From NCBI GenBank assembly GCA_031552815.1, contig JAVBMG010000014.1:77251-141250 (forward strand): 64,000 nucleotides of DNA, given 5' to 3'. The position numbers and the translations under genes were made by a program. The stretch comes from Opitutales bacterium (GTDB lineage Bacteria > Verrucomicrobiota > Verrucomicrobiia > Opitutales > JAVBMG01). The notes below the pieces were generated by a model that saw only the letters and a program-made list of their open reading frames with translations, was not told the origin of the DNA and searched no databases. Within the stretch, counting starts at the first letter, position 1, and every line of letters begins with the position of its first letter. Positions 2,570-56,494 of the stretch are shown piece by piece.

Positions 2570-3298
2570 ATGAAATATTTATCCAGTCTGACCATGATCC
2601 TCGCAGCGTTCATCCTGAGCGCCTGCGGCGATGACAACAAGAATGCGCCAAAAAGCGAAGGTACACCGGCACCCAGCTCGTCTTCCGCATCCGCTCCGGC
2701 ATCGGGAAGCACGATCAAGCTCGAGATTCCTTCGGAAGAACTTATCGGCACACCGGTTCCTTTCGAACTGCCTAACCTGGCTCCAGGAGGCGTTATTTCG
2801 CACCCGGCGATCTCTATTCCCAGCGACGTGAAGAACATCGCCCTCGGAAAGGAAGTTACCAGCAGCGACGATTTCCCGATCAACGGCGAACTTGAATTCC
2901 TCACGGACGGCAAAAAACGCGCATCCGGTGAATTCGTTCTCGAACTCGGACCCGGACGCCAATGGATACAGGTTGACCTCGGCGAAAAGTCGGAAGTTTA
3001 CGGTATTGCCCTCTGGCACTTCCATTCGCAGAAGCGCGCCTATCTTGACGTCGTCATCCAGATCTCCGACGATCCTGATTTTGTAAACGGCGTAACCACA
3101 CTCTTTAATAATGATGACGATAACAGTTCCGGACTCGGCAAGGGCACAGACTATGCCTATACCGAAACCAACTCGGGATTGCTTATTGACGCAAAAAAAT
3201 CGCTCGGCCGTTATATTCGTCTTTACAGCAACGGAAATACAACCGATAAATTGAATCATTACATTGAAGTGGAAGTCTACGGACGTCCCGCCAAATAA
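2570..3298 (+). CDS. Lipoprotein with an F5/8 type C (discoidin, galactose-binding-like) domain
   Basis: Internal ATG at 2570 gives MKYLSSLTMILAAFILSAC with a lipobox. The C-terminal part (WIQVDLG...YIRLYSNGN...VEVYG) is discoidin-like. Confidence 0.6.
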   Translation: MKYLSSLTMILAAFILSACGDDNKNAPKSEGTPAPSSSSASAPASGSTIKLEIPSEELIGTPVPFELPNLAPGGVISHPAISIPSDVKNIALGKEVTSSDDFPINGELEFLTDGKKRASGEFVLELGPGRQWIQVDLGEKSEVYGIALWHFHSQKRAYLDVVIQISDDPDFVNGVTTLFNNDDDNSSGLGKGTDYAYTETNSGLLIDAKKSLGRYIRLYSNGNTTDKLNHYIEVEVYGRPAK

Positions 3299-3475: not shown

Positions 3476-5224
3476 ATGAGTCGTTTTTTAGCATATCTGG
3501 CATTCGTGTTTATTCTTGTCGCGGGAATCTTTGTACGCTTTGACCAGCTTTCTCTCAAGCCGCTCCACGCAGACGAAGCCGTGCAGGCGACCCAACTGTC
3601 CACATTGATGGATGAAGGTGTCTACGCCTTTAACCCCAGGCATGCGCACGGCCCGACGCTCTACTATCTTTCAGATTTCCTCCTGAAAAGCATCGGTGTG
3701 GAATCCGGAGCCGGTTTAGACGAGACAAATCTCCGGTATTTTCCCGCTCTCTGCGGATGCCTGCTGTTGCTTGTTGCGCTATGCTACCGCCGCCTGCTCA
3801 CGCCGGGAGGACTCCTGTTCGCCGGCCTCTGTTTGGCCTTTTCTCCCGCTCTGGTTTACTACAGCCGCTATTTCATACAGGAAATGTTTTTCACGCTTAC
3901 TGTCACGGTTTTTGTGATTTCATTCGGCGAACTGTTCACAAACGGCAGAACCGTCAATGAATACCCCAAATGGCTATTTCTTGTCATGGGGTGCGCACTC
4001 GGCCTTGCCCATGCCACAAAGGAAACTGTTCTCGTTTCCGGATTAGCTGTTTTTCCCGCCTTACTGTTAAGCTTTGGTCCAGGAAAAACGGCGACGGCCT
4101 TTTCGCAATTATTCAAAGGCATTCTCCGGCTCCCGATACTGATTTTCCCTATCGCGGCGATCCTCTGTTCGACGGCCTTCTATTCCTCCTTCGGCACCAA
4201 TTTTCAGGGCATTCTCGACAGTTTTACGACATTTTTCTCCTACGAAGTCATGCCAGGCCATGAAAAACCATGGTACTACTTTTTTCAGCTATGGGGCATC
4301 GGCGAACTCAGAGGCGGTTTTTATTGGGGAGAATCCATTCTTTTCCTTGGCGGCAGCATGGGTTTGATTCTCGCCCATTTTCCGTCTGCCGCAGAATACG
4401 GTAAGGATCTCAGGCCCTTGCGCTTTATCGGCATTTACGGATGGATCTGCCTGATCATCTATTCATGCGTTGCCTATAAAACACCGTGGCTCATTGTCAG
4501 CATCATTCCCTCTTTCTGTATCCTTTCAGGATACGCCTTCGGCCGCCTCACGGGTAATACGCGCAATATACAGACCCAGGCAGGCATGATACTGGCCTCC
4601 GTGCTGATCCTTGTCATCGGCATCATGCTTTCCCAGCCGATTTCCCTCGGAGCGCTTCTCTTCGGACAAAGCCAGGAAACAAAACGACTGGTTTCTGGCA
4701 TGCTACCGTCGAAGTTTGTTTTGACTGCCATTGCCTGCATTCCCGTATTCTACGGGCTCCTGTCAATTCTCATCCAGCAGATCCGCCGGCGTTACTTCAG
4801 GATTCACTGGAGGACAATGCAGGTCCTTGCTGGAAGCTTTCTCTTCCTCTTCTGCCTGTACACACTCGGCACACAGGTTTTTCTCGGGAATTACGTTTTT
4901 CATTCCGATCCGCGAAATCCTTATGCGTATTCGGCCACAGCCGAAGATATCCACCGCCTGGTCAGGGACATGAACGCATTCCGGCAGGCACACCAGGAAC
5001 CGACCGTCTACGTTTACGCCAACAACTCCTGGCCGCTTCCCTGGTATATCCGGGATTTTCCCCAGGCTGCCTACTGGAAAGACCAGACATTCCGTCCGGA
5101 CGCAGACATCTACATTTTTGTTTCCGACCGTGCTTTCCCGTTCAAGCCCGATGAGGAAAAATACACCGTGCAGTTTTACGGGTTACGCTCGGAAATTCCC
5201 GCAGCGGTTTACTACCGGAAATAA
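3476..5224 (+). CDS. Polytopic membrane glycosyltransferase-like protein (GT39/ArnT-like, TIGR03663-like)
   Basis: 582 aa with more than 10 predicted TM helices. The N-terminal LHADEA...HGPTLYY motif is typical of this family. Confidence 0.55.
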   Translation: MSRFLAYLAFVFILVAGIFVRFDQLSLKPLHADEAVQATQLSTLMDEGVYAFNPRHAHGPTLYYLSDFLLKSIGVESGAGLDETNLRYFPALCGCLLLLVALCYRRLLTPGGLLFAGLCLAFSPALVYYSRYFIQEMFFTLTVTVFVISFGELFTNGRTVNEYPKWLFLVMGCALGLAHATKETVLVSGLAVFPALLLSFGPGKTATAFSQLFKGILRLPILIFPIAAILCSTAFYSSFGTNFQGILDSFTTFFSYEVMPGHEKPWYYFFQLWGIGELRGGFYWGESILFLGGSMGLILAHFPSAAEYGKDLRPLRFIGIYGWICLIIYSCVAYKTPWLIVSIIPSFCILSGYAFGRLTGNTRNIQTQAGMILASVLILVIGIMLSQPISLGALLFGQSQETKRLVSGMLPSKFVLTAIACIPVFYGLLSILIQQIRRRYFRIHWRTMQVLAGSFLFLFCLYTLGTQVFLGNYVFHSDPRNPYAYSATAEDIHRLVRDMNAFRQAHQEPTVYVYANNSWPLPWYIRDFPQAAYWKDQTFRPDADIYIFVSDRAFPFKPDEEKYTVQFYGLRSEIPAAVYYRK

Positions 5225-7090: not shown

Positions 7091-8380
7091 TTACAGAATA
7101 TCTCCGATGGAACCGAAATTCGGATCAAAAAGCCGTTTGTACATGCGGATTGCCTGGGAATCCGTCAGCGAAGCGAGATAATCGCAAATCAGGCGTGGTT
7201 TCTGTCCATCGTCCGCGGCAAGAACCCATGAGTGATAACGATCAGGCAAGAGCGGCGTACTCTGCCCGCTGTAATTATCCAGCAATGTTTCAAACAACTG
7301 CCTCAGCATGTTACCGCCCTTATAGCGCATCTGCAAAATCTGCGGCGACTGGAAAATCAAATCAAAGGCCAACCGTTTGTACACATTGCATTCCTCACGG
7401 ATTGACGGATCAATTGCCAGGTCGAACTTATGACGGTTTGTCGGCACTTTTTCACTGCCTGGCCTGTGTTTCAAGGAACATGCCTTGATAAAACTGCCGA
7501 CCTTCAGGCTAAACTCGGTTTCCGTGCTGCCTTCATTGATACAGTCTATCAGACGCCCAAGGATGGCTTCCGTTGTCTGCGGCAAGTGTTTTTTCTCAAT
7601 GGATGCTACCGTGCTTTGGCGTTTCAGCCATTTGCGGATATTGCTTTCATTCAGAAACTTTCCGCGCAACCCATCCTGGATGTCATGCAACGAATAAGCC
7701 GTATCATCCGCCCAATCCATGATCTGGCATTCGATGCTTTTCTGCATCATTGCACTGAGTTTCTGCTTATCGGCTCCCTCGCAGCAGAAATCCAACCAGC
7801 AGGCCTGTTCATCGAATAAAAAATGGTTTTTCGGCGGTAATTGTCTTTCCCCGGCAAAAGCATCCCTGTGAAGCCGTTTGTATTTCAGGATGCCGTCAAT
7901 CAACGCACGGGTCGGTCGCATCCCATAGGAACCTTCGTCACGCTCGTAAATGGTTTCCGTCAGCAAACGCAACGTCTGCGCATTGCCCTCAAAGCCGCCC
8001 TGTTCGCACATCAGTTCATTCAAGGCTGCCTCACCCGTATGGCCGAACGGCGGATGGCCGATATCATGCGCCAGACCGACAGCCTCGCACAAATCCGAAT
8101 CAATGTAAAAATCGGGTCTCAACGCCGGATTACTTGCCTTTAAGTATTCACAAATCGAACGGCAGATTCGGGCGACTTCCATCGAATGCGTCAGCCGCGT
8201 ATGGTAAAAGTCATATTCGCCTGTCTGGAATACCTGGGTTTTTGATTGCAGCTTCCGGAACGCATAGGAAAAAAGAATCCGGTCGCGGTCGATCTGGAAC
8301 GGAGTCCGGTGATCGCTGCCGCGCGATTTTCTGCTCTCGGCGTAAGCAATATCGAAATCATTGTAAAACGCATTATCCAT
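7091..8380 (-). CDS. dgt: dGTP triphosphohydrolase-like HD-domain protein
   Basis: RTPFQIDRDRILFS, HTRLTHSMEV and HDIGHPPFGH motifs. Confidence 0.85.
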   Translation of the reverse strand: MDNAFYNDFDIAYAESRKSRGSDHRTPFQIDRDRILFSYAFRKLQSKTQVFQTGEYDFYHTRLTHSMEVARICRSICEYLKASNPALRPDFYIDSDLCEAVGLAHDIGHPPFGHTGEAALNELMCEQGGFEGNAQTLRLLTETIYERDEGSYGMRPTRALIDGILKYKRLHRDAFAGERQLPPKNHFLFDEQACWLDFCCEGADKQKLSAMMQKSIECQIMDWADDTAYSLHDIQDGLRGKFLNESNIRKWLKRQSTVASIEKKHLPQTTEAILGRLIDCINEGSTETEFSLKVGSFIKACSLKHRPGSEKVPTNRHKFDLAIDPSIREECNVYKRLAFDLIFQSPQILQMRYKGGNMLRQLFETLLDNYSGQSTPLLPDRYHSWVLAADDGQKPRLICDYLASLTDSQAIRMYKRLFDPNFGSIGDIL

Positions 8381-38046: not shown

Positions 38047-40371
38047 ATGAACGAACAGCACATTTTTAAAATTTCCAATGAACTCAAACTGGGCGTTGCC
38101 CAAGTCCTTAAGACCGCAGAATTACTGAAGGAAGGCGCAACGGTTCCCTTCATCTCACGTTACCGTAAGGAAGCTACCGGCTCATTGGATGAAGTCGCCA
38201 TCACCGCCATCCGGGACCGCCTTGAACAACTGGCTGAACTGGATACACGGCGCGACGCCATCATCAAATCACTGGAAGAACGAAACCTGCTGACCGACGA
38301 TCTGAAAAAAGCCATTGCGACAGCCGAAACGCTTGCCACCCTTGAAGACATTTATCTTCCCTACCGTCCGAAGCGCCGTACCCGCGCAACGATCGCAAAA
38401 GAAAAGGGACTGGAACCCCTCGCCCAATTCATCTTTGAAAACCAGTCGGCCGATCCGGCCGCAGAGGCAAAGAAATATCTTGTCGAATCCGAGGACAAGG
38501 ACAAGGCGGTAGCATCCGTTGAGGATGCCCTGGCAGGCGCGCGCGACATCCTCGCCGAACAGTTTTCCGAAGATGCCGAAGCCCGGGCGGAAATCAGAAA
38601 AATATTCATGGAGGAAGGCACCCTTTCCTCCAAAGTCGTGGACGGAAAAGAAACCGAAGGAGCCAAGTTCAAGGATTACTTTGACTGGAAGGAGCCGCTG
38701 AAGACTGCGCCCTCGCACCGCATTCTCGCCATCCGGCGAGGTGAAGAAGAAGGTTTTCTCTTCTATCGCATCACGCTTCCCGATGACCGCGCCGAAGTCA
38801 AACTCAAGGCACGCTTCATGCAAGGCAAAGGCGCCGGAGCCGAACAAGTCGCCCTTGCCGCAGAGGATTCTTTCAAACGCCTGCTGAGCCCATCGCTCGA
38901 AGGCGAGGCCCGTTTTGAATCAAAAAAGCGCGCCGATGCAGAAGCCATCAAGGTTTTTGCGGACAATCTCCGCGAACTTCTGCTCGCCTCCCCGCTCGGA
39001 CAACGCTGGACGCTTGCCATCGACCCGGGATTCCGCACAGGCTGCAAAACCGTTGTCCTTGATCCGCAAGGCAAGCTGCTTTTTGACACCGTGCTTTACA
39101 TCACTGCCGGTTCGGACATGCAAAAGACCGAGGCGGAAACCATTATCCGCGGGCTCATAAAGCAATTCAAGATTCAGGCCATTGCCATCGGCAACGGTAC
39201 CGCCAGCCGCGAAACAGAAACCTTTGTCCGCGGACTCAAGCTACCGGCAGACATTGCGGTCTGCGTGGTTAACGAAAGCGGCGCATCCATTTATTCCGCA
39301 TCCGAAGTAGCGCGCAAGGAATTCCCGGACAAGGATGTTACCGTCCGTGGAGCGGTTTCCATCGGACGCCGTCTTATGGACCCGCTCGCCGAGCTGGTAA
39401 AGCTCGATCCCAAATCCATCGGCGTAGGCCAATACCAGCACGACGTGGACCAACGTATGCTGAAAACCTCGCTGGATGATACCGTCACGAGCTGCGTAAA
39501 CAAGGTCGGCGTGGAATTAAACACCGCCAGCGCGGAACTGCTTTCCTACGTTTCCGGACTCACGAAAGCTACCGCCGAAAACATCGTTGCCTACCGCAAT
39601 GAAAACGGCGCCTTTGCCGCACGTTCCGATCTGAAAAAAGTGCCGCGCCTCGGACCGAAAGCCTTTGAACAATGCGCCGGATTCCTGCGCATCCGCAACG
39701 GGAAACACCCGCTCGACGGATCAGGCGTACACCCCGAAAGTTACCATATCGTGGAACAGATGGCAAAAGACCTCAACTGCACGATTCCCGATCTTTTATC
39801 CAATGACGCCCTCCGCAAGAAAATCAAACCGGAGAGTTATCTCACGGACACCGTTGGTCTTCCCACCCTGCAAGACATCTTACAGGAACTTGCCAAACCC
39901 GGACGCGACCCGCGTGCGGAATTCGAAAGTTTTTCCTTTGATGCCGGCGTCCATGAAATCACGGACCTGAAAGAAGGCATGAAACTTCCCGGTATCGTCA
40001 CGAATGTGACGGCCTTCGGCGCCTTTGTGGATATCGGTGTCCACCAGGACGGACTCGTTCACGTCTCGCAGCTTTCCGACAGTTTTGTCACTAATCCCGC
40101 CGATGTCGTCAAGGTACACCAGAAAGTGATGGTTACCGTCACGGAAGTTGACGTCGCGCGCAAACGCATCGGCTTATCCATGAAAACCGTTGCGGACAAA
40201 CCGGCCCGCAGTGTCGGCGACAATCGCGGCGGCAGCATGGGAAGCCCGGGCAGAGGCGGTAACATGAACCGCCCGCAAGGCGGCCAACGGCCCAACAACC
40301 CTTCGCGCGGCAATCAGAATTTCGGGAACAGTTTCGGTTCGCTCTTTGACGACGCATTCAAAAAGAAATAA
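38047..40371 (+). CDS. tex: Transcription accessory protein Tex (S1 domain) with a Gly/Arg/Asn-rich C-terminal tail
   Basis: PFISRYRKEATG, a YqgF-like region, HhH motifs and a C-terminal S1 domain (GIVTNVTAFGAFVDIG). Confidence 0.9.
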   Translation: MNEQHIFKISNELKLGVAQVLKTAELLKEGATVPFISRYRKEATGSLDEVAITAIRDRLEQLAELDTRRDAIIKSLEERNLLTDDLKKAIATAETLATLEDIYLPYRPKRRTRATIAKEKGLEPLAQFIFENQSADPAAEAKKYLVESEDKDKAVASVEDALAGARDILAEQFSEDAEARAEIRKIFMEEGTLSSKVVDGKETEGAKFKDYFDWKEPLKTAPSHRILAIRRGEEEGFLFYRITLPDDRAEVKLKARFMQGKGAGAEQVALAAEDSFKRLLSPSLEGEARFESKKRADAEAIKVFADNLRELLLASPLGQRWTLAIDPGFRTGCKTVVLDPQGKLLFDTVLYITAGSDMQKTEAETIIRGLIKQFKIQAIAIGNGTASRETETFVRGLKLPADIAVCVVNESGASIYSASEVARKEFPDKDVTVRGAVSIGRRLMDPLAELVKLDPKSIGVGQYQHDVDQRMLKTSLDDTVTSCVNKVGVELNTASAELLSYVSGLTKATAENIVAYRNENGAFAARSDLKKVPRLGPKAFEQCAGFLRIRNGKHPLDGSGVHPESYHIVEQMAKDLNCTIPDLLSNDALRKKIKPESYLTDTVGLPTLQDILQELAKPGRDPRAEFESFSFDAGVHEITDLKEGMKLPGIVTNVTAFGAFVDIGVHQDGLVHVSQLSDSFVTNPADVVKVHQKVMVTVTEVDVARKRIGLSMKTVADKPARSVGDNRGGSMGSPGRGGNMNRPQGGQRPNNPSRGNQNFGNSFGSLFDDAFKKK

Positions 40372-40491: not shown

Positions 40492-42510
40492 ATGATCAGA
40501 AAACCCTTACTTTTACTTTCCCTGTCATTATTACTTGCGATTTCCGCCAAGCTTACAGCCAAAAACAATAGTGACTACGTAAACCTCTTTATCGGCACTT
40601 CCGGCGACAACGGACAGGTCGATCCGGGCGCAGGCGTTCCTTTCGGCATGGTACGCGTCTGTCCTGACACGGAACCCAGACAGCATCCGGGCTATGACTA
40701 CTCCGCAGAAAAAATCCGCGGTATTTCCATCAACCGCCTTTCGGGTGTCGGCTGCAGCGGCGCAGGCGGTAACCTCCTTATCAAACCCGCCCCTTTCGAC
40801 CAGGAAGTAAAAATCAGGAAGAGCACGGAGAAAGCGTTTCCGGGATATTACGAAACCGGCTTTGACAACGGTGTTACCGCCAGGCTCACGGCAACAAACA
40901 ATGTCGCTGTCGAAGAATATACATTCACCCAGGGAGACAAGTCTGTTCTCAGCATCAATTTTTCCTCCGCCTTTGAAAATTTCCGTGAGGAAAACCACAG
41001 CTTCATTTCCGACACGGAAATCGAAGGTTTCGTGCGCGCTGCCAACGTGTGCGGCCACGGCCGTTACAAGCTGTTCTTCCATATAAAGACAAGCCAGCCT
41101 TTCACGGTAGAATCAGATAAGGACCACAAAGCGCAACTGGTTTTCCCGCAGGGAAAGAGCAAACCGGTTGAAGTCCGCATCGCCATTTCATCCGTGGACC
41201 AGGCCACGGCCAAAGAAGAAAATGTTCTCGCCGGTAAACAGAGCGCTGCCGCGATACGCGCAGAAGCCGCAAAACAATGGGAAGCAAAACTCGCGCGGAT
41301 CACCGTGGAAGGCGATGAAAACGAGAAGACCATTTTCTATACCTCGCTTTACCGTGTTTATCTCAGCCCGGCCAATGTTACTTCCTGCGACAATAAATAT
41401 CTCGGTACCGACGGAAAAATCCACGTAGCAGAAGGATTCACTTACTACAGTTCATGGTCACTCTGGGATTCCTTCCGCACAAAGTTCCCGTTGATTGTTC
41501 TCACCGAACCCAAAATCATGCGGGACATTTCCTGCTCGCTGATCAAACTCTACGAGACAGGAAAGGAAGACTGGTCCACGCGCAATGAAGCCACGCCAAC
41601 CGTCCGCACCGAGCACGCCGTTATTCTTTTATTGGATGCTTACCGCAAAGGCATCACCGACATTGATTTCAAAGACGGTTATTTCGGGATGCTGGAAGAA
41701 GCGGAACGCCTTCCGATGAAATCACCCGACCAGAAACTGGAATCCAGTTACGACCTCTGGGCGCTTGCCCAGATCGCCGATATTGTCGGAAAAGAAGAGG
41801 ATGCCAAAAATATCCGGGAAAAATCCGAAACGCTTTTTGAAGAAACCTGGAAAAAAGATTTCATGAATGTGGATTCCACCTACGGACAGATGCGTGGTAA
41901 TGGCTTGTATCAGGGAACCCGCTGGCAGTATCGTTGGGCAGCCCCCCAATACATTGACAAAATGATCGAGTACGTCGGCAGCCAGGAAACACTCCGCAAG
42001 CAACTGGAAACCTTCTTTGCCGAAACCCACTACAATCAGGGTAACGAACCCGACATCCATGTGCCTTTTCTTTTCAACCGTTTCGGCGCTCCCGAGAAGA
42101 CACAGGATATTGTCCGCAGACTCCTGACCGACGATACCATGATCCACCGCTACGGCGGTAACGCCGAATTTCCGAAACCTTATGTCGGCAGGGCTTTCAA
42201 AAACGGACCTGAAGGCTTTATGCCTGAAATGGACGAAGACGACGGTACCATGGGAGCCTGGTATGTATTCAGCTCAATGGGTTTCTATCCGATGATTGTC
42301 GGTTCACCGGAATACGAAATTGTTTCCCCGATTTTTGACAAGGTAACGATCCATCTTGAAAACGGGAAAACATTCAAAATTCTGACCAAGAACAGAAAGA
42401 ATATAAATGACCCGATAAAAAGCATAACCTTAAATGGGCAGGCATATACAAAATATCAACTGCGACACGCCGCCATTGAAAATGGCGGGACGTTAGAACT
42501 CTGCTATTAA
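40492..42510 (+). CDS. Glycoside hydrolase family 92 (alpha-mannosidase-like), secreted
   Basis: Signal peptide, and DYVNLFIGTSGDNGQVDPGAGVPFGMV, the typical GH92 N-terminal signature. Confidence 0.75.
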   Translation: MIRKPLLLLSLSLLLAISAKLTAKNNSDYVNLFIGTSGDNGQVDPGAGVPFGMVRVCPDTEPRQHPGYDYSAEKIRGISINRLSGVGCSGAGGNLLIKPAPFDQEVKIRKSTEKAFPGYYETGFDNGVTARLTATNNVAVEEYTFTQGDKSVLSINFSSAFENFREENHSFISDTEIEGFVRAANVCGHGRYKLFFHIKTSQPFTVESDKDHKAQLVFPQGKSKPVEVRIAISSVDQATAKEENVLAGKQSAAAIRAEAAKQWEAKLARITVEGDENEKTIFYTSLYRVYLSPANVTSCDNKYLGTDGKIHVAEGFTYYSSWSLWDSFRTKFPLIVLTEPKIMRDISCSLIKLYETGKEDWSTRNEATPTVRTEHAVILLLDAYRKGITDIDFKDGYFGMLEEAERLPMKSPDQKLESSYDLWALAQIADIVGKEEDAKNIREKSETLFEETWKKDFMNVDSTYGQMRGNGLYQGTRWQYRWAAPQYIDKMIEYVGSQETLRKQLETFFAETHYNQGNEPDIHVPFLFNRFGAPEKTQDIVRRLLTDDTMIHRYGGNAEFPKPYVGRAFKNGPEGFMPEMDEDDGTMGAWYVFSSMGFYPMIVGSPEYEIVSPIFDKVTIHLENGKTFKILTKNRKNINDPIKSITLNGQAYTKYQLRHAAIENGGTLELCY

Positions 42511-42519
42511 CCTTCAAAG

Positions 42520-42551
42520 CAGCATGATTGGCTATGGCCGATTTTCAATTC
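42520..42551 (+). repeat. Left arm of the inverted repeat flanking the GH78-like gene
   Basis: cagcatgattggctatggccgattttcaattc is the exact reverse complement of 45050-45081. Imperfect similarity (20 of 31) continues inward to about 42582. Confidence 0.9.
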
Positions 42552-42600
42552 CCCCATTAATTGACATGACGATTGCTTTTGTTTTCTTATTTAATCTTTT

Positions 42601-44919
42601 ATGAATGTGATGAATAAAATATGTACTTTTTCTTTGTTCCTGATCTTTTTATGTTTTTGTCCGGTTTGTTTTGTAAAAGCAATTGATCTGGAAGGTACAA
42701 AATGGATATCTGTGGATGAACAACTTTTCGGGGAAAACCAATGGATTTGTTTCCGTAAAGATTTTCATGTAAGCAAAAAAAATGAAAAAGCGGATTTTTA
42801 TATTGCTGTTGATTCCAAATACTGGTTGTGGATAAATGGTGAACCGGTTGTTTTTGAAGGAGGATTAAAACGTGGTCCCAATCCAAATGACACCTATATG
42901 GATCATATAAATATAGGGCCGTATCTTACGAAAGGTAAAAATACGATTGCCATATTGATGTGGTATTGGGGAAAAGATGGTTATTGTCATAAGAACAGTG
43001 GCAAGCCGGGATTATTAGCAAAGCTTATGTCAGGTAGGAACTATATTTCTACGGACGAAACATGGAAAGTCAAAATACATCCGGCATATGGAAAATCGGG
43101 TGAGCCTTATCCGAATTATCGTCTACCGGAAACAAATATTCATTTTGATGCAAGAAATGATATGGAGGGCTGGGAAACGTCTGATTTTTCGGATATCCAT
43201 TGGGAAAATGCAAGTGTACAGGGAGTCTATCCATGTGAACCATGGAATATATTGCATGAGCGCCCAATTCCGAACTGGCATGATTCAGGAATTGTCAGTT
43301 ATAAGGAAATATTGAAACAGACGGATGGAGAGAAGCAGATAATCAAGGCTAGGCTTCCCCGAAATATCAGTATAACGCCTTATATGAAGATAATAGCAAC
43401 AGAAGGAAAGTTAATCGATATACGTACGGATAATTATAAAGGTGGTAGTGAATATAATGTGAGGGCAGAATATATTACGAAAGACGGAATCCAAGAATTT
43501 GAGGCATATAATTATGTAAACGGACAGTATGTAATCTATACAATGCCTGTTGATGTGGCAATTATCGAATTGGGTTATCGGGAAACAAGATATAATACGG
43601 AGCATATCGGAAAGTTTGAATGCAATGATGATTTTTATAATGTTTTGTGGCAAAAAGCCCTCAACACGATGAATCTGAATATGCGTGATGCTATACAGGA
43701 TCCGGACCGGGAACGGTCGCAATGGTGGGGAGATGCCGTAATTGTTTCAGGCGAGATTTTTTATAGTTGTGATGCGAATGGCGTTCAGGCAATTAAAAAA
43801 GCAATCCGGAATCTGGTTGACTGGCAAAAAGAGAACGGGGTATTATATTCTCCTGTTCCGGCAGGTTCATGGGATAGGGAACTACCTGCGCAGATGTTGG
43901 CTAGTATCGGTAAATATGGATTCTGGAATTATTATGTATATAGCGGTGACCGTGAAACAATTGAATATGTTTATCCTTCGGTAAAAAAATATTTGTCTTT
44001 ATGGGGATTTGATGAAAAAGGACTTGTGATACATCGTAATGGTGACTGGGATTGGCAGGATTGGGGTACGCATGTAGACGTTGCCGTCATTGATAATGCG
44101 TGGTATTATCTGGCATTGGAAGCAGCAGAAAATATGGCAAATCTTCTTGGGCACAAAGAGGACGCGCTGGCATATGCTCAAAAAAGAAAAATTATAAAAG
44201 AAGCGGTGAACCGGCATTTTTGGAATGGGAGAGAATACCGAGATCCTCTATATAAAGGAAATACTGATGACCGGGCAAACGGATTGGCTGTATTGGCCGG
44301 CTTTGCAAATGTGGAAAAATGGGAAACGATCCGGCATTTTCTGAACGAATATGCCAATGCAAGTCCCTATATGGAAAAGTATATACTGGAATCATATTTT
44401 CACCAAAATGATGCAGTAGGTGGGTTGGAAAGAATGAAAAACCGTTATCAATACATGGTAAATCATGAGCTTACGACTTTATGGGAAGACTGGCAGATTG
44501 GTGGTCATGGCGGTGGCAGCATCAATCATGGTTGGGCAGGAGGACCTTTAACGCTTTTATCTCAATATGTGGCAGGAATAAAGCCTTTGGAATCCGGTTG
44601 GAAATCCTTTATCATCAAACCTCAGTTAGGGAACCTGGAATGGGTAAATTGTATTGTTCCGGCAGGAAATGAAACAATCCGGGTACAAATAAAAAAACAA
44701 AATAACCATTTCTCAATTGAAACGGATAATACGCTCCAATCTGCTTTTATAATAGCTGTCCCGAAAATGAAAGGGAAACAAATTATTATTAATGAAAAAG
44801 TATATGATTTTAATAATTTTTCGAAGGTAAATGAAAAATATATCCAGTATGAAGAATCTGATGAGGAGTATATCTATTTTAAATCTGATTTGCAGAAAAT
44901 AAAAATTGTAGTTCAGTAA
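42601..44919 (+). CDS. GH78-like alpha-L-rhamnosidase (six-hairpin glycosidase), secreted; AT-rich gene
   Basis: Signal peptide, and a DRERSQWWGDA motif typical of the rhamnosidase (alpha/alpha)6 domain. Composition is markedly AT-rich. Confidence 0.6.
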   Translation: MNVMNKICTFSLFLIFLCFCPVCFVKAIDLEGTKWISVDEQLFGENQWICFRKDFHVSKKNEKADFYIAVDSKYWLWINGEPVVFEGGLKRGPNPNDTYMDHINIGPYLTKGKNTIAILMWYWGKDGYCHKNSGKPGLLAKLMSGRNYISTDETWKVKIHPAYGKSGEPYPNYRLPETNIHFDARNDMEGWETSDFSDIHWENASVQGVYPCEPWNILHERPIPNWHDSGIVSYKEILKQTDGEKQIIKARLPRNISITPYMKIIATEGKLIDIRTDNYKGGSEYNVRAEYITKDGIQEFEAYNYVNGQYVIYTMPVDVAIIELGYRETRYNTEHIGKFECNDDFYNVLWQKALNTMNLNMRDAIQDPDRERSQWWGDAVIVSGEIFYSCDANGVQAIKKAIRNLVDWQKENGVLYSPVPAGSWDRELPAQMLASIGKYGFWNYYVYSGDRETIEYVYPSVKKYLSLWGFDEKGLVIHRNGDWDWQDWGTHVDVAVIDNAWYYLALEAAENMANLLGHKEDALAYAQKRKIIKEAVNRHFWNGREYRDPLYKGNTDDRANGLAVLAGFANVEKWETIRHFLNEYANASPYMEKYILESYFHQNDAVGGLERMKNRYQYMVNHELTTLWEDWQIGGHGGGSINHGWAGGPLTLLSQYVAGIKPLESGWKSFIIKPQLGNLEWVNCIVPAGNETIRVQIKKQNNHFSIETDNTLQSAFIIAVPKMKGKQIIINEKVYDFNNFSKVNEKYIQYEESDEEYIYFKSDLQKIKIVVQ

Positions 44920-45049
44920 CTTAATCTTTTCCCCTTTAAGGCAATGTTGTTATAAGTTAAGAAATAGTCATTGCGAGTACCCACCCAAAAATTGGGCGCC
45001 AAAGAGATAATGACGAGCATTAAAACTATCGTCATTTCGATCGAAGAGA

Positions 45050-45081
45050 GAATTGAAAATCGGCCATAGCCAATCATGCTG
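45050..45081 (-). repeat. Right arm of the inverted repeat flanking the GH78-like gene
   Basis: gaattgaaaatcggccatagccaatcatgctg is the exact reverse complement of 42520-42551. Confidence 0.9.
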
Positions 45082-45086
45082 TTTTT

Positions 45087-45342
45087 TTAATCCGCAAGCC
45101 TTTGATACATAATTGTAACTATACTTTTTATTTGATTGCCCAACTCGGGTGGATTCAAAACCTGAGCATGTTCCCCCCCAGCTCAAAACCCAGCGAATTA
45201 CTTCCTCGAAATGCGTCAGTTTAAGTTGCAGTTCTAATTCGCCATTCGTCTGCTCAACAATCTTTTGGGAATCATGCCACAATCGTTCCCGAATAAATGC
45301 TGCCGAAAATAAGAACCTAGAAAGCCTAGTCGCGACAACAGA
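45087..45342 (-). pseudogene. 3' remnant of a WYL-domain transcriptional regulator (C-terminal WCX-like domain only), frameshifted in a C7/G7 run
   Basis: The minus-strand translation reads FIRERLWHDSQKIVEQTNGELELQLKLTHFEEVIRWVLSWG. Removing one G from the G7 run (plus-strand C7 at 45173-45179) continues it as EHAQVLNPPELGNQIKSIVTIMYQRLAD-stop (stop at 45087-45089). This is the canonical WYL-protein C-terminus. The HTH and WYL domains are absent. Confidence 0.5.
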
Positions 45343-45517
45343 TCATACACTTGGGAAACCTGATCTGCCTAAAATCGGAGATATTGATGCAACATATGTA
45401 TCTAAAGATGCATCCAGAATTAGAAGAGAATTAGAAAAAAATCCAAAATTGAGAGATGCTTTCCGACAAGCAAGAGACCCAAGCATAAATGATTTAGATA
45501 AAACAAAAAAACAGTAG
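45290..45517 (+). pseudogene. 5'-truncated coding fragment, upstream part of the 45601-46140 ORF, separated from it by a frameshift at an A7 run
   Basis: This frame-2 segment (NLESLVATTDHTLGKPDLPKIGDIDATYVSKDASRIRRELEKNPKLRD...) has no start codon of its own downstream of the WYL remnant. It ends at TAG 45515-45517. Frame 1 is open from 45502. Confidence 0.3.
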
Positions 45518-45600
45518 TTCATAATAATCAAAGCAATCGTTATACAGATACTTCACTAATTAAAATCAAAGAATCTCCATTTAGAAAGGTTTCTCGCAGG

Positions 45601-46140
45601 ATGTCGTTCCTACTTGGTATTAGTGGTGCAGCTTTCACAACAGTTCAAGATGGATATGAAGCATGGGAAGCATTCAGTGACCCATCACAAAGTTTAGCAC
45701 TCGCCTCACTTAAAGGAATTAAAGCAACGGGAAGAGGTGCTGAAACCGGAATATTATTTTTCCGTCATTTCATCAAAAGCGCTAATAAATATTTTTTGCC
45801 TGTAGCTATCGGAGTAGAATATACATCTGGAGCAATTACGGTTTATGAGTATAATTTAGGAAAGATCTCAAATTTTGATTTTTATAGAAAAATAAGCGGA
45901 CCTTCTATTTTTGCTGCATTCACAGCAGGAGGCGCCGTCATTGGAGGTTTTACTGGAGGAGTTTCTAGTGCAGGAGCTGGAGCTGTCCCTGGAGCATTGA
46001 CAGGTGCAGAGATCGGAGCCCTAATTGCCATTCCTGTACAAATTGGTGTAGATTATACCTTTGAATGGTGGTACAAAAAATTTAATGAAGAGCAAGAGGC
46101 CCGGGTTGAAATTGCGATTCGTAGCTTATACTTCAATTGA
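45601..46140 (+). CDS. Hypothetical glycine-zipper membrane protein (possibly the C-terminal part of a decayed pore-forming toxin-like gene)
   Basis: 179-aa ORF containing GGAVIGGFTGGVSSAGAGAVPGALTGAEIGALIAIP, a run of GxxxG repeats. The sequence is very AT-rich. I recognise no family. Confidence 0.35.
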   Translation: MSFLLGISGAAFTTVQDGYEAWEAFSDPSQSLALASLKGIKATGRGAETGILFFRHFIKSANKYFLPVAIGVEYTSGAITVYEYNLGKISNFDFYRKISGPSIFAAFTAGGAVIGGFTGGVSSAGAGAVPGALTGAEIGALIAIPVQIGVDYTFEWWYKKFNEEQEARVEIAIRSLYFN

Positions 46141-46192
46141 AAGATTTTTTGAGCGACAAGGGTTGCCATTCAGGTTTATAATCGCCGGCAAG

Positions 46193-47395
46193 ATGAAAAC
46201 GTTCTGTTATTCGCTTATCGTTTTTTTTATTTCGCTAGGATCAAGCTTCTGCCTGGGAAATCCCAGTGATGCTACCGCCGAAACCACTGATCTGAATGCT
46301 GATTCCATACGGTTCACGGCAACGCCGGCCGATGACTGGAACGCCGTACTCACCCGCACGTCCGGCTGGCTGGCCGCGGACGGTGTTTACTCCATGAACC
46401 TGTCTTCGGGGAAAGAAACGCCTGCCGGATCCAGAGACCGCATTCTCTTTATATTCAGCGACAGTTTTCTCGGCGAAATAAAGGACGGTAAACTGCAACC
46501 GGGTTGCACGATGGTAAACAATACGGTGGCCTTGCTTGAAGGGAAAACACCCGACCCCGATAAGATTACTTTTTACTGGCGCAAGCCGGGTAATAAGACG
46601 CAAAGTGTTTTCCTACCGGAAAAACCAAAGGACGGAAGTTATTTCTGGCTCGGAGACGGTTTCGTGAATACGGATAACTTCGGCGAATTATGTCTGTTTG
46701 CCTATGAAATGCGAAACACGGGAAAAGGCGCTTTTGGGTTTGAGCAAATCGGAACCAGCATCCTGACCGTCGACAAGGGCGAGAAAATGCCATTCAACCG
46801 TTACCGCCAAACAGAATTGCCTTTTTCCTTCAAAGAGAAGGCGGATAAAATGACCAATCCGTTCGGTGCGGGCATTTTTATGAATACCGAAAAAGCGGGA
46901 GCCAAAAACCCTGACGGCTACGTTTATATCTACGGTGTCTACGGTGAAAAGAAACAGGTACTTGTCGCCCGCGTTTTACCCAAGGAATTTACGCAGTTCT
47001 CCGCATGGCGTTTCTGGAACGGAAGCGAATGGGACAGCGATGTAAACCACGCTGCCGCCGTCACGGACAGAGCCTCGCATGAGTTGAGCCTTACTCAGCT
47101 TTCCGACGGACGCTACGCCCTGATTTTCCAGATCGATACGATTGGCGCACAAATCGGGATGCGGCTGGCAAAACAGCCGCAAGGCCCTTTTGGCCCAATC
47201 ATTAAAGTCTGGGATTGTCCTGAGGTTAAAGTGTCCCCGAATTTCTATGTCTATAACGCCAAGGCGCATCCCGTGCTCTCATCCGCGAATGAACTGATTA
47301 TTTCCTACAACGTGAATTCATTCAAATTCCTTCAGGATATAAACAGCTATCCGAATTATTTCCGCCCGCGGTTTGTCCGCGTGACCTTTGAATAG
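46193..47395 (+). CDS. Secreted hypothetical protein, possibly a DUF4185-like (glycosidase-like beta-propeller) protein
   Basis: ATG 46193 gives the signal peptide MKTFCYSLIVFFISLGSSFC. Host-like GC resumes here. The family call is tentative. Confidence 0.5.
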   Translation: MKTFCYSLIVFFISLGSSFCLGNPSDATAETTDLNADSIRFTATPADDWNAVLTRTSGWLAADGVYSMNLSSGKETPAGSRDRILFIFSDSFLGEIKDGKLQPGCTMVNNTVALLEGKTPDPDKITFYWRKPGNKTQSVFLPEKPKDGSYFWLGDGFVNTDNFGELCLFAYEMRNTGKGAFGFEQIGTSILTVDKGEKMPFNRYRQTELPFSFKEKADKMTNPFGAGIFMNTEKAGAKNPDGYVYIYGVYGEKKQVLVARVLPKEFTQFSAWRFWNGSEWDSDVNHAAAVTDRASHELSLTQLSDGRYALIFQIDTIGAQIGMRLAKQPQGPFGPIIKVWDCPEVKVSPNFYVYNAKAHPVLSSANELIISYNVNSFKFLQDINSYPNYFRPRFVRVTFE

Positions 47396-54214: not shown

Positions 54215-56494
54215 ATGAAACCAATTCCTCAATCCCCGGAAAAACCATCACGCAAGCAAAAATCCGTGAAATCCGAATCCATACAAAAACGAAAAGAACC
54301 TTCCGACCTGGAACTGCTTCTGTCCGTGCATCATTCCCAGCCTCACAGGTTTCTCGGCATGCATCCCTTCACGCAAGGCAAGACCAAGGGCGTGGTCGTC
54401 AGGGCTTACCTGCATGACGCCATCAATTGCGAGGTCGTCGACGCCATCACGGATAAACGCTACGAGCTGACGCGCATCGACAATACGGATTTGTTCGAAG
54501 GCTTTATCAGCGAACAGAAAAACGTATTTCCCTATCGTCTTCGTATCGAACGGCACAACGGCGAAATAAAACAGTTCTATGATCCTTATTCATTTTTACC
54601 GACAATAAGCGATCAGGACCTGTATCTTTTCAACGAAGGCACGGAGCATAAAGCGTATAAAAAACTGGGCGCACGTCCGCGCGTAATCGACGGTGTCGTC
54701 GGTGTTTCCTTTGCCGTATGGGCCCCGAGCGCAAAGCGCGTTTCCGTGGTAAGCGAATTCAATAATTGGGACGGACGCTACCATCCCATGCGCATACTGG
54801 GCAATTCAGGAGTCTGGGAAATTTTCATCCCCGGCATGCGGGCCGGAACAAAATACAAATACGAGGTTCTTTGTTCCGATGATACCATGCGACTGAAAAC
54901 CGATCCTTACGGAACATCCTTTGAAGCGCCGCCTTACAATTCCTCCATTGTTTGCGATGTGGATAATGATTACCAATGGAATGACAACGGCTGGATCAAT
55001 TACCGCGACTCCACGGACTGGCAAAAGAAACCGGTTTCGGTTTACGAGGTGCATCTTGGTTCGTGGAAACGCAATACCGAGGACGGGAACCGTCCGTACA
55101 CTTACCGTGAAATCGCCCACGATCTTGCCAACTATGTCAAAGAGCAAGGATTCACCCACGTCGAGTTTCTCCCTGTTGCGGAACACCCGTTCGAAGGATC
55201 ATGGGGTTATCAGGTAACGGGTTATTTTGCGCCGACACATCGTTTCGGCTCCCCGCATGATTTTAAATACCTCGTGGATACGCTCCATCAAAACGGTATC
55301 GGTGTCATCATGGACTGGGTTCCGGGTCACTTTCCGCGCGATGCGTTTGCCTTGGCCGAATTTGACGGCACCCATCTTTACGAACACGCCGATCCGCGTC
55401 AGGGTGAACACAAGGAATGGGGTACATTCATTTTCAATTATGACCGCCGCGAGGTGCGTTCTTTTCTTCTAGGCAGCGCGTTGGCCTGGCTCGACCGCTA
55501 CCACATCGACGGCTTGCGCGTAGACGCGGTAGCATCCATGCTTTATCTTGATTACGGACGCAAAGACGGCGAATGGATACCAAACCCTTACGGCGGCCAC
55601 GAGAATATCGGTGCGCTGGAATTCCTGCGTTACACGAACGATACTATCCACGAGTATTTCCCTGGCGCACTCATGATTGCCGAGGAATCAACCTCCTGGC
55701 CGGGCGTAACCAAGCCAACTTCTGAACTCGGACTGGGATTCGACCTGAAATGGAACATGGGCTGGATGCATGATACCATCCACTACATCAATCAGGACTC
55801 CCTGTTCCGCAAGCATTACCACAACTCGCTCACCTTCGGCATGCTTTACCAGTACTCCGAAAACTTCATGCTCGTTTATTCGCACGATGAAGTGGTTCAC
55901 GGTAAAGGTTCCATGCTGAACAAGGTCTCCGCCGGCAGCATCAAGGAAAAAGCACAAACCCTGCGAGCCCTCTATGCTTTCATGTGGACATGGCCGGGTA
56001 AGAAAACGCTGTTCATGGGCGGTGAATTCGGACAATCCCGCGAATGGAAATACGACGCAGGACTCGACTGGTTCCTGCTCCAATACAAGGATCATTCGGG
56101 CATACAAGCGGTTGTTAAAGACCTGAATTATTTTTACCGCAATAATCCCGGACTCGCCGAGAGGGAAAACGATTCGCATGCATTCACATGGATCAATGTA
56201 GGCGACTGGCAACAGTCCGTACTGAGTTTTGCGCGTTTTGGAAACACTCCGGACGAGATGTACCTGGTTGTCACCAACTTCACCCCGGTCATGCGCCAAA
56301 GATATCGTATCGGTGTACCGAAAGGCGGCTACTGGACAGAGCTTATCAATACAAATGCCGGAGAATACGGCGGGAGCGGAGAAGGCAACCTGGGAGGCGT
56401 ATCAAGCGAAACTATCCCATGTGACGGACGCAACGACAGCATCGAAATCACATTGCCTGGATTAACGACTGTTATCTTCAAGCTTCACGTTTAA
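54215..56494 (+). CDS. glgB: 1,4-alpha-glucan branching enzyme
   Basis: GH13 motifs (DWVPGHF, GLRVDAVASMLY, AEESTSWP, YSHDEVVHGK). ATG 54215 is preferred. Confidence 0.9.
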   Translation: MKPIPQSPEKPSRKQKSVKSESIQKRKEPSDLELLLSVHHSQPHRFLGMHPFTQGKTKGVVVRAYLHDAINCEVVDAITDKRYELTRIDNTDLFEGFISEQKNVFPYRLRIERHNGEIKQFYDPYSFLPTISDQDLYLFNEGTEHKAYKKLGARPRVIDGVVGVSFAVWAPSAKRVSVVSEFNNWDGRYHPMRILGNSGVWEIFIPGMRAGTKYKYEVLCSDDTMRLKTDPYGTSFEAPPYNSSIVCDVDNDYQWNDNGWINYRDSTDWQKKPVSVYEVHLGSWKRNTEDGNRPYTYREIAHDLANYVKEQGFTHVEFLPVAEHPFEGSWGYQVTGYFAPTHRFGSPHDFKYLVDTLHQNGIGVIMDWVPGHFPRDAFALAEFDGTHLYEHADPRQGEHKEWGTFIFNYDRREVRSFLLGSALAWLDRYHIDGLRVDAVASMLYLDYGRKDGEWIPNPYGGHENIGALEFLRYTNDTIHEYFPGALMIAEESTSWPGVTKPTSELGLGFDLKWNMGWMHDTIHYINQDSLFRKHYHNSLTFGMLYQYSENFMLVYSHDEVVHGKGSMLNKVSAGSIKEKAQTLRALYAFMWTWPGKKTLFMGGEFGQSREWKYDAGLDWFLLQYKDHSGIQAVVKDLNYFYRNNPGLAERENDSHAFTWINVGDWQQSVLSFARFGNTPDEMYLVVTNFTPVMRQRYRIGVPKGGYWTELINTNAGEYGGSGEGNLGGVSSETIPCDGRNDSIEITLPGLTTVIFKLHV

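Follow-up and report, generated by a model that had tools for sequence, protein, structure and literature searches.

The stretch of DNA considered here (the window) comprises 64,000 nucleotides of an Opitutales bacterium (Verrucomicrobiota; GenBank assembly GCA_031552815.1), namely positions 77,251 to 141,250 of contig JAVBMG010000014.1. This contig is called C1 below, other contigs of the genome are numbered likewise, and coordinates without a contig label are those of the window. Its segment 42520-45081 consists of a single intact gene of glycoside hydrolase family 78 (GH78) type enclosed by two copies of a short non-coding sequence in inverse orientation (the arms). Here we present a description of the arms, their cargo and the two junctions, together with an interpretation of the segment, which is tentatively read as a single-gene cassette acquired from Bacteroidales. 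The features of the locus are as follows.

40492-42510, plus strand: alpha-mannosidase-type gene of glycoside hydrolase family 92 (GH92), the left flank, recognized by Pfam and NCBIfam, with a host-like G+C content
42516-42579, plus strand: left arm, with its perfect part at 42520-42551 and the 28-nt core at 42524-42551
42601-44919, plus strand: GH78-like ('alpha-L-rhamnosidase-related') gene, 772 aa, intact, with a signal peptide, the sole cargo between the arms
45022-45085, minus strand: right arm, the reverse complement of the left one, with its perfect part at 45050-45081 and the 28-nt core at 45050-45077
45087-45330, minus strand: 3' remnant of a WYL-family regulator gene (WCX, i.e., the C-terminal part only), the right flank, frameshifted in a G7/C7 run at 45173-45179
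45331-46190, plus strand: rest of a low-G+C stretch, with orphan or decayed open reading frames (ORFs) at 45149-45517 and 45601-46140, outside the repeat-bounded unit

The sequence CAGCATGATTGGCTATGGCCGATTTTCAATTC at 42520-42551 is a perfect reverse complement of 45050-45081. A set of 100 dinucleotide-preserving shuffles did not yield a single match. A repeat search widens the pair to 42516-42579 and 45022-45085 (64 nt, 84% identity). Compared in a fixed register, the arms agree at 3 of the 4 outer positions, at 32 of 32 positions of the perfect tract and at 20 of the 31 inner positions; the last value includes a shared ATGACGAT and is unlikely to arise by chance (binomial p = 7e-5 at a composition match rate of 0.30). 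Further inward the agreement falls to 10/31 and then 9/31, i.e., to chance level. The homologous unit of the arms is about 67 nt long and can be regarded as a module of about 65 nt. The unevenness between the perfect tract and the inner part (65%) is significant (Fisher p = 1.4e-4), which suggests that the core is either under constraint or homogenized. An initial annotation of this DNA had reported the exact 32-bp repeat as well as the similarity continuing inward for about 31 nt, and both observations hold.

The Logan unitigs of run SRR23967709, the only run that contains the locus, independently hold both junction halves, which rules out an assembly artefact. The ends of Logan contigs fall at 42549, 42522, 45079 and 45052, where a k=31 graph is bound to break at a 32-bp inverted repeat; they thus confirm the sequence but do not address the orientation of the segment.

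Between the arms there is one long ORF (42601-44919), in agreement with the earlier description of a sole GH78-like gene accompanied by neither recombinase nor transposase. Its product matches PF17389 Bac_rhamnosid6H (5.5e-33), PF08531 Bac_rhamnosid_N (32.3 bits) and PF17390 Bac_rhamnosid_C (23.2 bits), all above the cut-offs. By this domain content the cargo is assigned to the GH78 alpha-L-rhamnosidase family, with a predicted activity, and its relatives bear the name 'alpha-L-rhamnosidase-related protein'. Identities of 62-71% were found with proteins from metagenomes and from Bacteroidota (Proteiniphilum, Parabacteroides, Chitinophagaceae, Sphingobacteriaceae), whereas homologs in the order of the host reach only 45-49% identity and occur in 4 of 150 genomes. 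The G+C content is 0.378 between the arms (0.33-0.43 along the profile of the gene) vs. 0.50 in the 5-kb flanks and 0.474 genome-wide. The AT-rich interior noted initially is thus real, although low G+C is not confined to it and continues past the right arm to about 46,200. Regarding the host, no SusD-family gene was found in the genome (a Bacteroides control was positive), and the Tex protein shows 64-66% identity to Opitutaceae and Chthoniobacter metagenome-assembled genomes (MAGs) vs. 53% to a spirochaete MAG; together these results indicate a verrucomicrobium-like host. Judged from composition and relatives, the cargo is a fairly unameliorated acquisition from Bacteroidota, and the core shares this provenance. 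In a Bacteroidales genome, the Proteiniphilum MAG JBDKVK010000018.1, the closest named relative of the GH78-like gene is lined up with two GH92 genes and another GH78-like gene; the pairing of GH92 and GH78-like genes seen in the window exists in the likely donor group, too.

At both of its edges the Bacteroidota-like DNA stops a few bases from the outer end of an arm, which is unexpected for a random donor fragment. On the left, the stop codon of the GH92 gene occupies 42508-42510 (protein end ...GGTLELCY*), and the arm begins 5-9 nt after it. Alignments of the GH92 protein to solved GH92 structures end at residue 668-670 of 672, whereas the chains of the structures run 21-33 residues further, and the C-terminus is about 13-33 residues shorter than in the solved structures. 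The 3' end of the gene thus appears, from these alignments, to be clipped at the start of the foreign DNA. Relatives of the GH92 gene in the order of the host show only 29-36% identity, and three paralogs are found in the genome.

On the right, the WYL remnant is recognized by the Pfam WCX model (7e-4) and the PADLOC WYL model (6.9e-9). If one G is removed from the G7 run, three-frame translation lets the remnant read ...RWVLSWGEHAQVLNPPELGNQIKSIVTIMYQRLAD*, with a TAA at 45087-45089. Among 36 related loci, nearly all from Verrucomicrobiota, the same RWVLSWGEH..VL.P..L ending recurs, with the stop 68-73 aa from the start of the alignment. The TAA is accordingly the natural stop, and the remnant is of the type found in the phylum of the host. 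The right arm, read on the minus strand, begins 5 nt past this stop. The core is missing from the 36 related loci and is hence not the native 3' flank of WYL genes. The WYL stretch has a G+C content of 36-41%, although its closest relatives are from Verrucomicrobiota. The genes immediately beyond the right arm are decayed, whereas the cargo gene is intact, so the two sides have different histories. Regarding the ORFs of the low-G+C stretch beyond, no family match other than a weak one to DUF6861 was obtained, and a single weak relative was found in 300 genomes of the phylum. A third, degenerate arm at the outer edge of this stretch (46,100-46,250) or nearby was ruled out, as alignment scores remained at the null level.

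The arm is present exactly twice in the 2.49-Mb, 97.7%-complete genome of 17 contigs (blastn-short, and a pattern search allowing up to 3 mismatches). The 28-nt core had no match in 400 other genomes of the same order (up to 3 mismatches), a 24-mer of the core had no exact match among the genomes of 185,579 species, a 22-mer had none in viral contigs, and a distant blastn search of plasmids yielded nothing significant. Among 241 million metagenome records of the Joint Genome Institute (JGI), the exact 24-mer occurred once. This match lies on a contig (L006, Ga0099364_10050134) that carries the complete 28 nt, ATGATTGGCTATGGCCGATTTTCAATTC, between sequences that are unrelated to the arms on both sides. 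The proteins of L006 are at most 42% identical to those of the present genome, so it represents a different organism, and the relatives of its TolC (Tannerella, Parabacteroides, Tannerellaceae) belong to the Bacteroidales. On L006 the core falls within an efflux operon's leader, where an ABC-transporter ATPase gene of the same orientation has its ATG 25 nt downstream. An orthologous operon (L053, TolC 90% identical) shares the spacer but not a block of about 58-61 nt that holds the core. The core therefore belongs to an insertion/deletion polymorphism, and a conserved regulatory site of the operon is ruled out. The homology between L006 and the arms and the perfect identity between the two arms end at the same base, immediately after CAATTC, which marks the boundary of a discrete unit. 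The initial annotation had listed a repeat that occurs nowhere else among the observations that would refute it; this further copy of the core shows otherwise.

Some additional observations concern the spacers of this operon. A short repeat, TTCAGTTATTCAATYACTCA... (TTCAGTTATTCAAT...), is present on L006 in 3 copies within 1 kb (3152-3177, 3900-3925 and 4137-4157), two of which flank the ABC ATPase gene as an inverted pair of 26 nt, and L053 carries another spacer repeat (GTAAGA units) in its place. Operon spacers turn over fast in the lineage of L006 and L053. Upstream of the ABC ATPase gene, L006:3955-3975 (minus strand) and L053:1048-1068 read TTGGCACGAT(T/A)TTTGT, which resembles a sigma-54 promoter (-24 GG / -12); if that promoter is real, the insertion that holds the core would fall in the 5' leader.

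The initial annotation had also proposed that the arms are two copies of a dispersed intergenic repeat family. Two copies are present here, and none of the sampled genomes is multi-copy, so the proposal as such is unsupported, but a repeat family may yet exist in an unsampled donor genome. In that case the core would be an extragenic palindrome of the REP kind, multi-copy in a Bacteroidales donor, and a transferred fragment would simply have carried the flanking copies along as passive passengers. REP-like families typically show a conserved core and variable flanks. The core is indeed a short, imperfect, extragenic palindrome, and two of its three copies follow directly 3' of a stop codon; between orthologous spacers at 90% identity it constitutes an insertion polymorphism, and the organism of L006 possesses the short spacer repeat of its own described above. 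This explanation has to contend with the single occurrence of the exact 24-mer in the JGI records, with its absence from the species' genomes and with the lack of the core in the 400 genomes of the order, and it leaves unexplained why the foreign DNA ends within a few bases of the core copies. We regard it as quite unlikely.

Passive carriage aside, the interpretation that fits best, because the arms coincide with both phyletic junctions, the core is shared with an indel in Bacteroidales and the core is constrained, is that 42520-45081 represents a one-gene cassette of Bacteroidales origin, which carries a small conserved non-coding unit at its two ends in inverse orientation, entered the genome in one piece and is now probably static. 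We assign this interpretation a probability of roughly 0.4. The arms would be the boundary sequences of a non-autonomous cassette, and whatever moved it would have acted in trans, not being encoded within the segment; movement as a unit, the involvement of an enzyme and any activity at present are what we infer from these coincidences. The cassette most likely persists in this host as a fixed relic, and no sign of current activity was seen. RecA-dependent exchange in Escherichia coli has a minimal processing segment of about 23-27 bp; rare RecA-dependent flipping may thus be possible on 32 bp of perfect identity, a length near the lower limit, and would be compatible with any of the explanations considered here. 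Of the possibilities named in the initial annotation, a non-autonomous cargo element comes closest, given arms at both foreign edges and a core that is an inserted unit elsewhere, but it has come without a target-site duplication, a second context or a partner enzyme.

A number of results weigh against a mobile cassette. A target-site duplication is lacking, as the initial annotation had already observed: the flanks (...AACCTTC/AAAG and TTTT/TTTAATCC, with the slash at the boundary) have no direct repeat in common. The empty site is predicted to read like TAACCTTCAAAG^TTTTTTTAATC. The lost 3' end of the GH92 gene was not found beyond the right arm, so the insertion was not a clean cut-and-paste event. 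Low G+C content runs 1.1 kb past the right arm, to about 46,200, and the right arm might therefore be internal to a larger foreign patch. The exact cargo protein was found only in run SRR23967709, at the present locus, and the cassette was not found in a second genomic context. The four closest GH78-like loci (67-71% identity) have neither the arm nor a comparable inverted repeat; the core is thereby also ruled out as part of a conserved region upstream of GH78-like genes. With a known total of three copies, two here and one in L006, the core does not make up an active multi-copy family. Neither a transposase nor a recombinase was identified as a partner, the families searched being PF00589 and PF00239 only. 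Finally, this genome contains four more unique inverted pairs, which enclose ordinary genes of native G+C content, and a host-side process without any mobile element could therefore make such brackets.

These four pairs came from a scan of the genome for perfect inverted repeats (minimum length 20 nt, within 20 kb); their arms measure 27 to about 320 nt and are 92-96% identical.

C2:2925-3102 and 4117-4296: arms of 178 nt, 92% identity, enclosing a PEP-CTERM protein gene
C5:52546-52866 and 55595-55918: arms of about 320 nt, 93% identity, enclosing genes for a DUF418 protein and a maltose-acetyltransferase-like protein
C15:5731-5847 and 7332-7453: arms of about 117 nt, 92% identity, enclosing an inositol monophosphatase gene and another ORF
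C6:39484-39510 and 39725-39751: arms of 27 nt, 214 nt apart, the segment being too short to hold a gene

All four lack a target-site duplication, have no match in Rfam and contain no mobility gene, and the interior G+C content is native. The pair on C2 includes a perfect tract of 54 nt within a more diverged arm. The spacing of the pair on C6 (214 nt) equals the size of an invertible promoter, and the arms of about 320 nt on C5 look rich in local hairpins.

The presence of these pairs lends itself to an explanation by rearrangement in situ. The arms would then be an inverted duplication of a once-unique sequence, generated when a segment was inverted or integrated (by the filling-in of staggered breaks or by a template switch during replication), with the perfect tract kept by gene conversion and with neither a mobile element nor a site-specific enzyme involved. 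In Drosophila inversions, staggered breaks are documented to leave inverted duplications of non-repetitive sequence at both breakpoints (PMC1885836). At the present locus, too, the arms are unique and without a target-site duplication, and the pair on C2 likewise combines a long perfect tract with a diverged arm, among four unique brackets around ordinary genes. However, a scar of this kind leaves unexplained that the same 28 nt occur in the indel of an unrelated Bacteroidales operon, with the homology ending at the very base at which the perfect tract ends; the interior here is foreign, whereas that of the other four pairs has native G+C content; and the mechanism has been documented in flies, not in bacteria. 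On balance, a scar is an unlikely alternative to the acquired cassette.

Regarding enzymes that might act on the arms, no match to the serine recombinases (Resolvase family, PF00239) was found in the genome, whereas control genomes were positive. Three tyrosine recombinases (PF00589) are present, none of them on C1.

C10: two tyrosine recombinases of 315-320 aa, Xer-sized
C3: one tyrosine recombinase of 377 aa, a phage-type integrase adjoining a Cro/CI-like gene

The core shows poor dyad symmetry (at best 8/16 in the arm). Split in the 11-6-11 manner it reads ATGATTGGCTA / TGGCCG / ATTTTCAATTC, the 11-nt halves not being inverted repeats of each other, and the ATAA-N6-TTAT hallmark of dif is not in the core. 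Known dif sites comprise 28 bp, with two 11-bp arms, a 6-bp spacer and a palindromic inner part (PMC6449649); lacking the palindromic 11-6-11 layout, the core is ruled out as a dif-like site.

These data also bear on a programmed invertible segment, in which a recombinase encoded elsewhere would flip the 2.5 kb at the 32-bp sites and so place the GH78-like gene in sense or antisense to read-through from the GH92 gene (phase variation). In its favour, the segment resembles the Mu G, P1 C and Salmonella H segments in size and repeat length, all 32 bp of the repeat match, and the genome encodes three tyrosine recombinases. The absence of serine recombinases from a 97.7%-complete genome, the absence of any recombinase from the contig of the window, the phage-type nature of the integrase on C3 and the poor dyad symmetry of the core all argue against it. 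Moreover, the gene would retain its own proximal upstream region after a flip, which leaves little switching effect, and the assembler of the MAG resolved one orientation, which is weak evidence. Phase variation at this locus is highly improbable.

Within the interpretation as an acquired cassette, one could go a step further and regard the 28-nt core as the place where an undescribed site-specific recombination system of Bacteroidales, acting in trans, makes its crossovers; this system would move single-gene cassettes with inversely oriented sites in the manner of dif modules, by way of an unrelated site, and would have delivered the glycosidase gene across phyla. Such a system would be a long shot.

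The core folds into a hairpin with a 7-bp stem that is followed by a short U-run. In the left arm this hairpin is GATTGGC-TATG-GCCGATT at 42526-42543, followed by TTTC; a 7-bp stem with a 4-nt loop and UUUC is shared by all three copies of the core, all of which are intergenic. The arms might accordingly be viewed as weak intrinsic terminators facing outward-in, of which the left one would stop read-through from the GH92 gene into the GH78-like gene and the right one would stop antisense transcription from the WYL side, the pair being retained because it insulates the expression of the acquired gene. Consistent with this view are the hairpin GAUUGGC-UAUG-GCCGAUU plus UUUC in all copies, the location of both arms 5-9 nt past a stop codon in sense to the incoming gene, and a core that is conserved whereas the inner part drifts. 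Yet a consensus terminator scan gave no call, shuffled sequences fold as well as the right arm and the L006 copy do (z = 0.23 and -0.29, respectively), the core of L006 lies in the leader of an operon rather than after a gene, and the WYL gene that would have to be terminated is dead. An insulating role is therefore very unlikely. The fold shared by the arms depends on a single compensatory pair in the context of an A/T run, and Rfam yielded no match to the arm at E-values up to 10.

Coding and promoter signals in the arms were considered as well. The ATG at 42524 and its counterpart at 45077 open ORFs of 26 and 54 aa, and the TGA of the left arm overlaps the ATG of the GH78-like gene. A small arm-encoded protein is ruled out, because the 54-aa ORF is without a homolog, the reading frame comprises 12 aa in L006 and the excess of changes at third positions is not significant. 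The left arm contains a perfect TTGACA at 42561-42566 without an acceptable -10 element and matches the Bacteroidetes -7 motif at 7 of 8 positions; the scan lists no promoter.

Compared with known systems, the locus fits none as a member; it is most likely the relic of a recombinase-free single-gene cassette, akin to composite cargo units or to the brackets of dif modules. Pairs of miniature inverted-repeat transposable elements (MITEs) and composite non-autonomous cargo units include the integron mobilization units and the Tn3-derived TIME composites. Like these, the locus has a gene without mobility function between inverted short non-coding copies, and any mobilization would have to come in trans; unlike these, it is without a target-site duplication, its arms of about 65 nt themselves lack clear terminal inverted repeats, and neither further copies in the genome nor a recognized cognate transposase family accompany it. 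The dif modules of Acinetobacter hold genes between inversely oriented 28-bp pdif sites of XerC/XerD (PMC6449649). They share with the present locus the few genes between inverse short sites, the lack of an internal recombinase and of a target duplication, the 28-nt unit and the presence of Xer-like recombinases in the genome, but the core here lacks the palindromic 11-6-11 layout, and the module was not found in a second context, is chromosomal and belongs to another phylum.

The Gin/Hin/Cin segments and the invertons of the Bacteroides type (PMC11892184, PMC11602134) are likewise characterized by perfect inverted repeats of about 30 bp around a segment of a few kb. In contrast to these, the present locus has no serine invertase or adjacent recombinase, its sites are not dyad-symmetric, and its arms enclose a whole gene together with the upstream region of that gene instead of a promoter or alternative gene ends. 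With the staggered-break duplications of Drosophila (PMC1885836) it has in common a unique sequence inverted at both ends, the lack of a target duplication or mobile element, and the occurrence of several such loci per genome; however, these duplications are known from eukaryotic chromosomes, whereas here the arm unit recurs in another organism and no ancestral arrangement is at hand for comparison. REP and REPIN sequences resemble the core in being short, imperfect extragenic palindromes, often located right after stop codons and polymorphic in presence or absence between close relatives, but they number tens to hundreds, vs. two copies here and one elsewhere, the core lacks a head of the GTAG type, and no RAYT gene was noticed, with no search aimed at one.

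If the arms delimit a mobile unit, they would represent a minimal vehicle, with ends of about 65 nt and without an enzyme of its own, that would carry genes for carbohydrate-active enzymes between phyla in a common habitat, and the 28-nt core would serve as a sequence handle for finding more cassettes. If they are a scar, the value lies in the pattern, i.e., five unique inverted pairs around ordinary genes in one small genome, which would hint at a rearrangement process that leaves inverted duplications at breakpoints, known from flies and hardly documented in bacteria. In both cases the gene at the locus is an ordinary, horizontally acquired glycosidase gene.

Apart from the unique pairs, the genome contains a low-copy dispersed repeat, GTTACCGAGCGTAGCGACAGC, of about 8-11 copies, located as follows.

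C5: 40480-40524, 41194-41238, 44599-44632 and 44890-44923
C11: 50640-50924, 52451-52586 and 58398-58451
C4: 126852-126886
C1: 11558-11584

Inverted pairs of this repeat enclose a restriction-modification set with two methyltransferases, a GxxExxY gene and a second GH78 gene (1055 aa).

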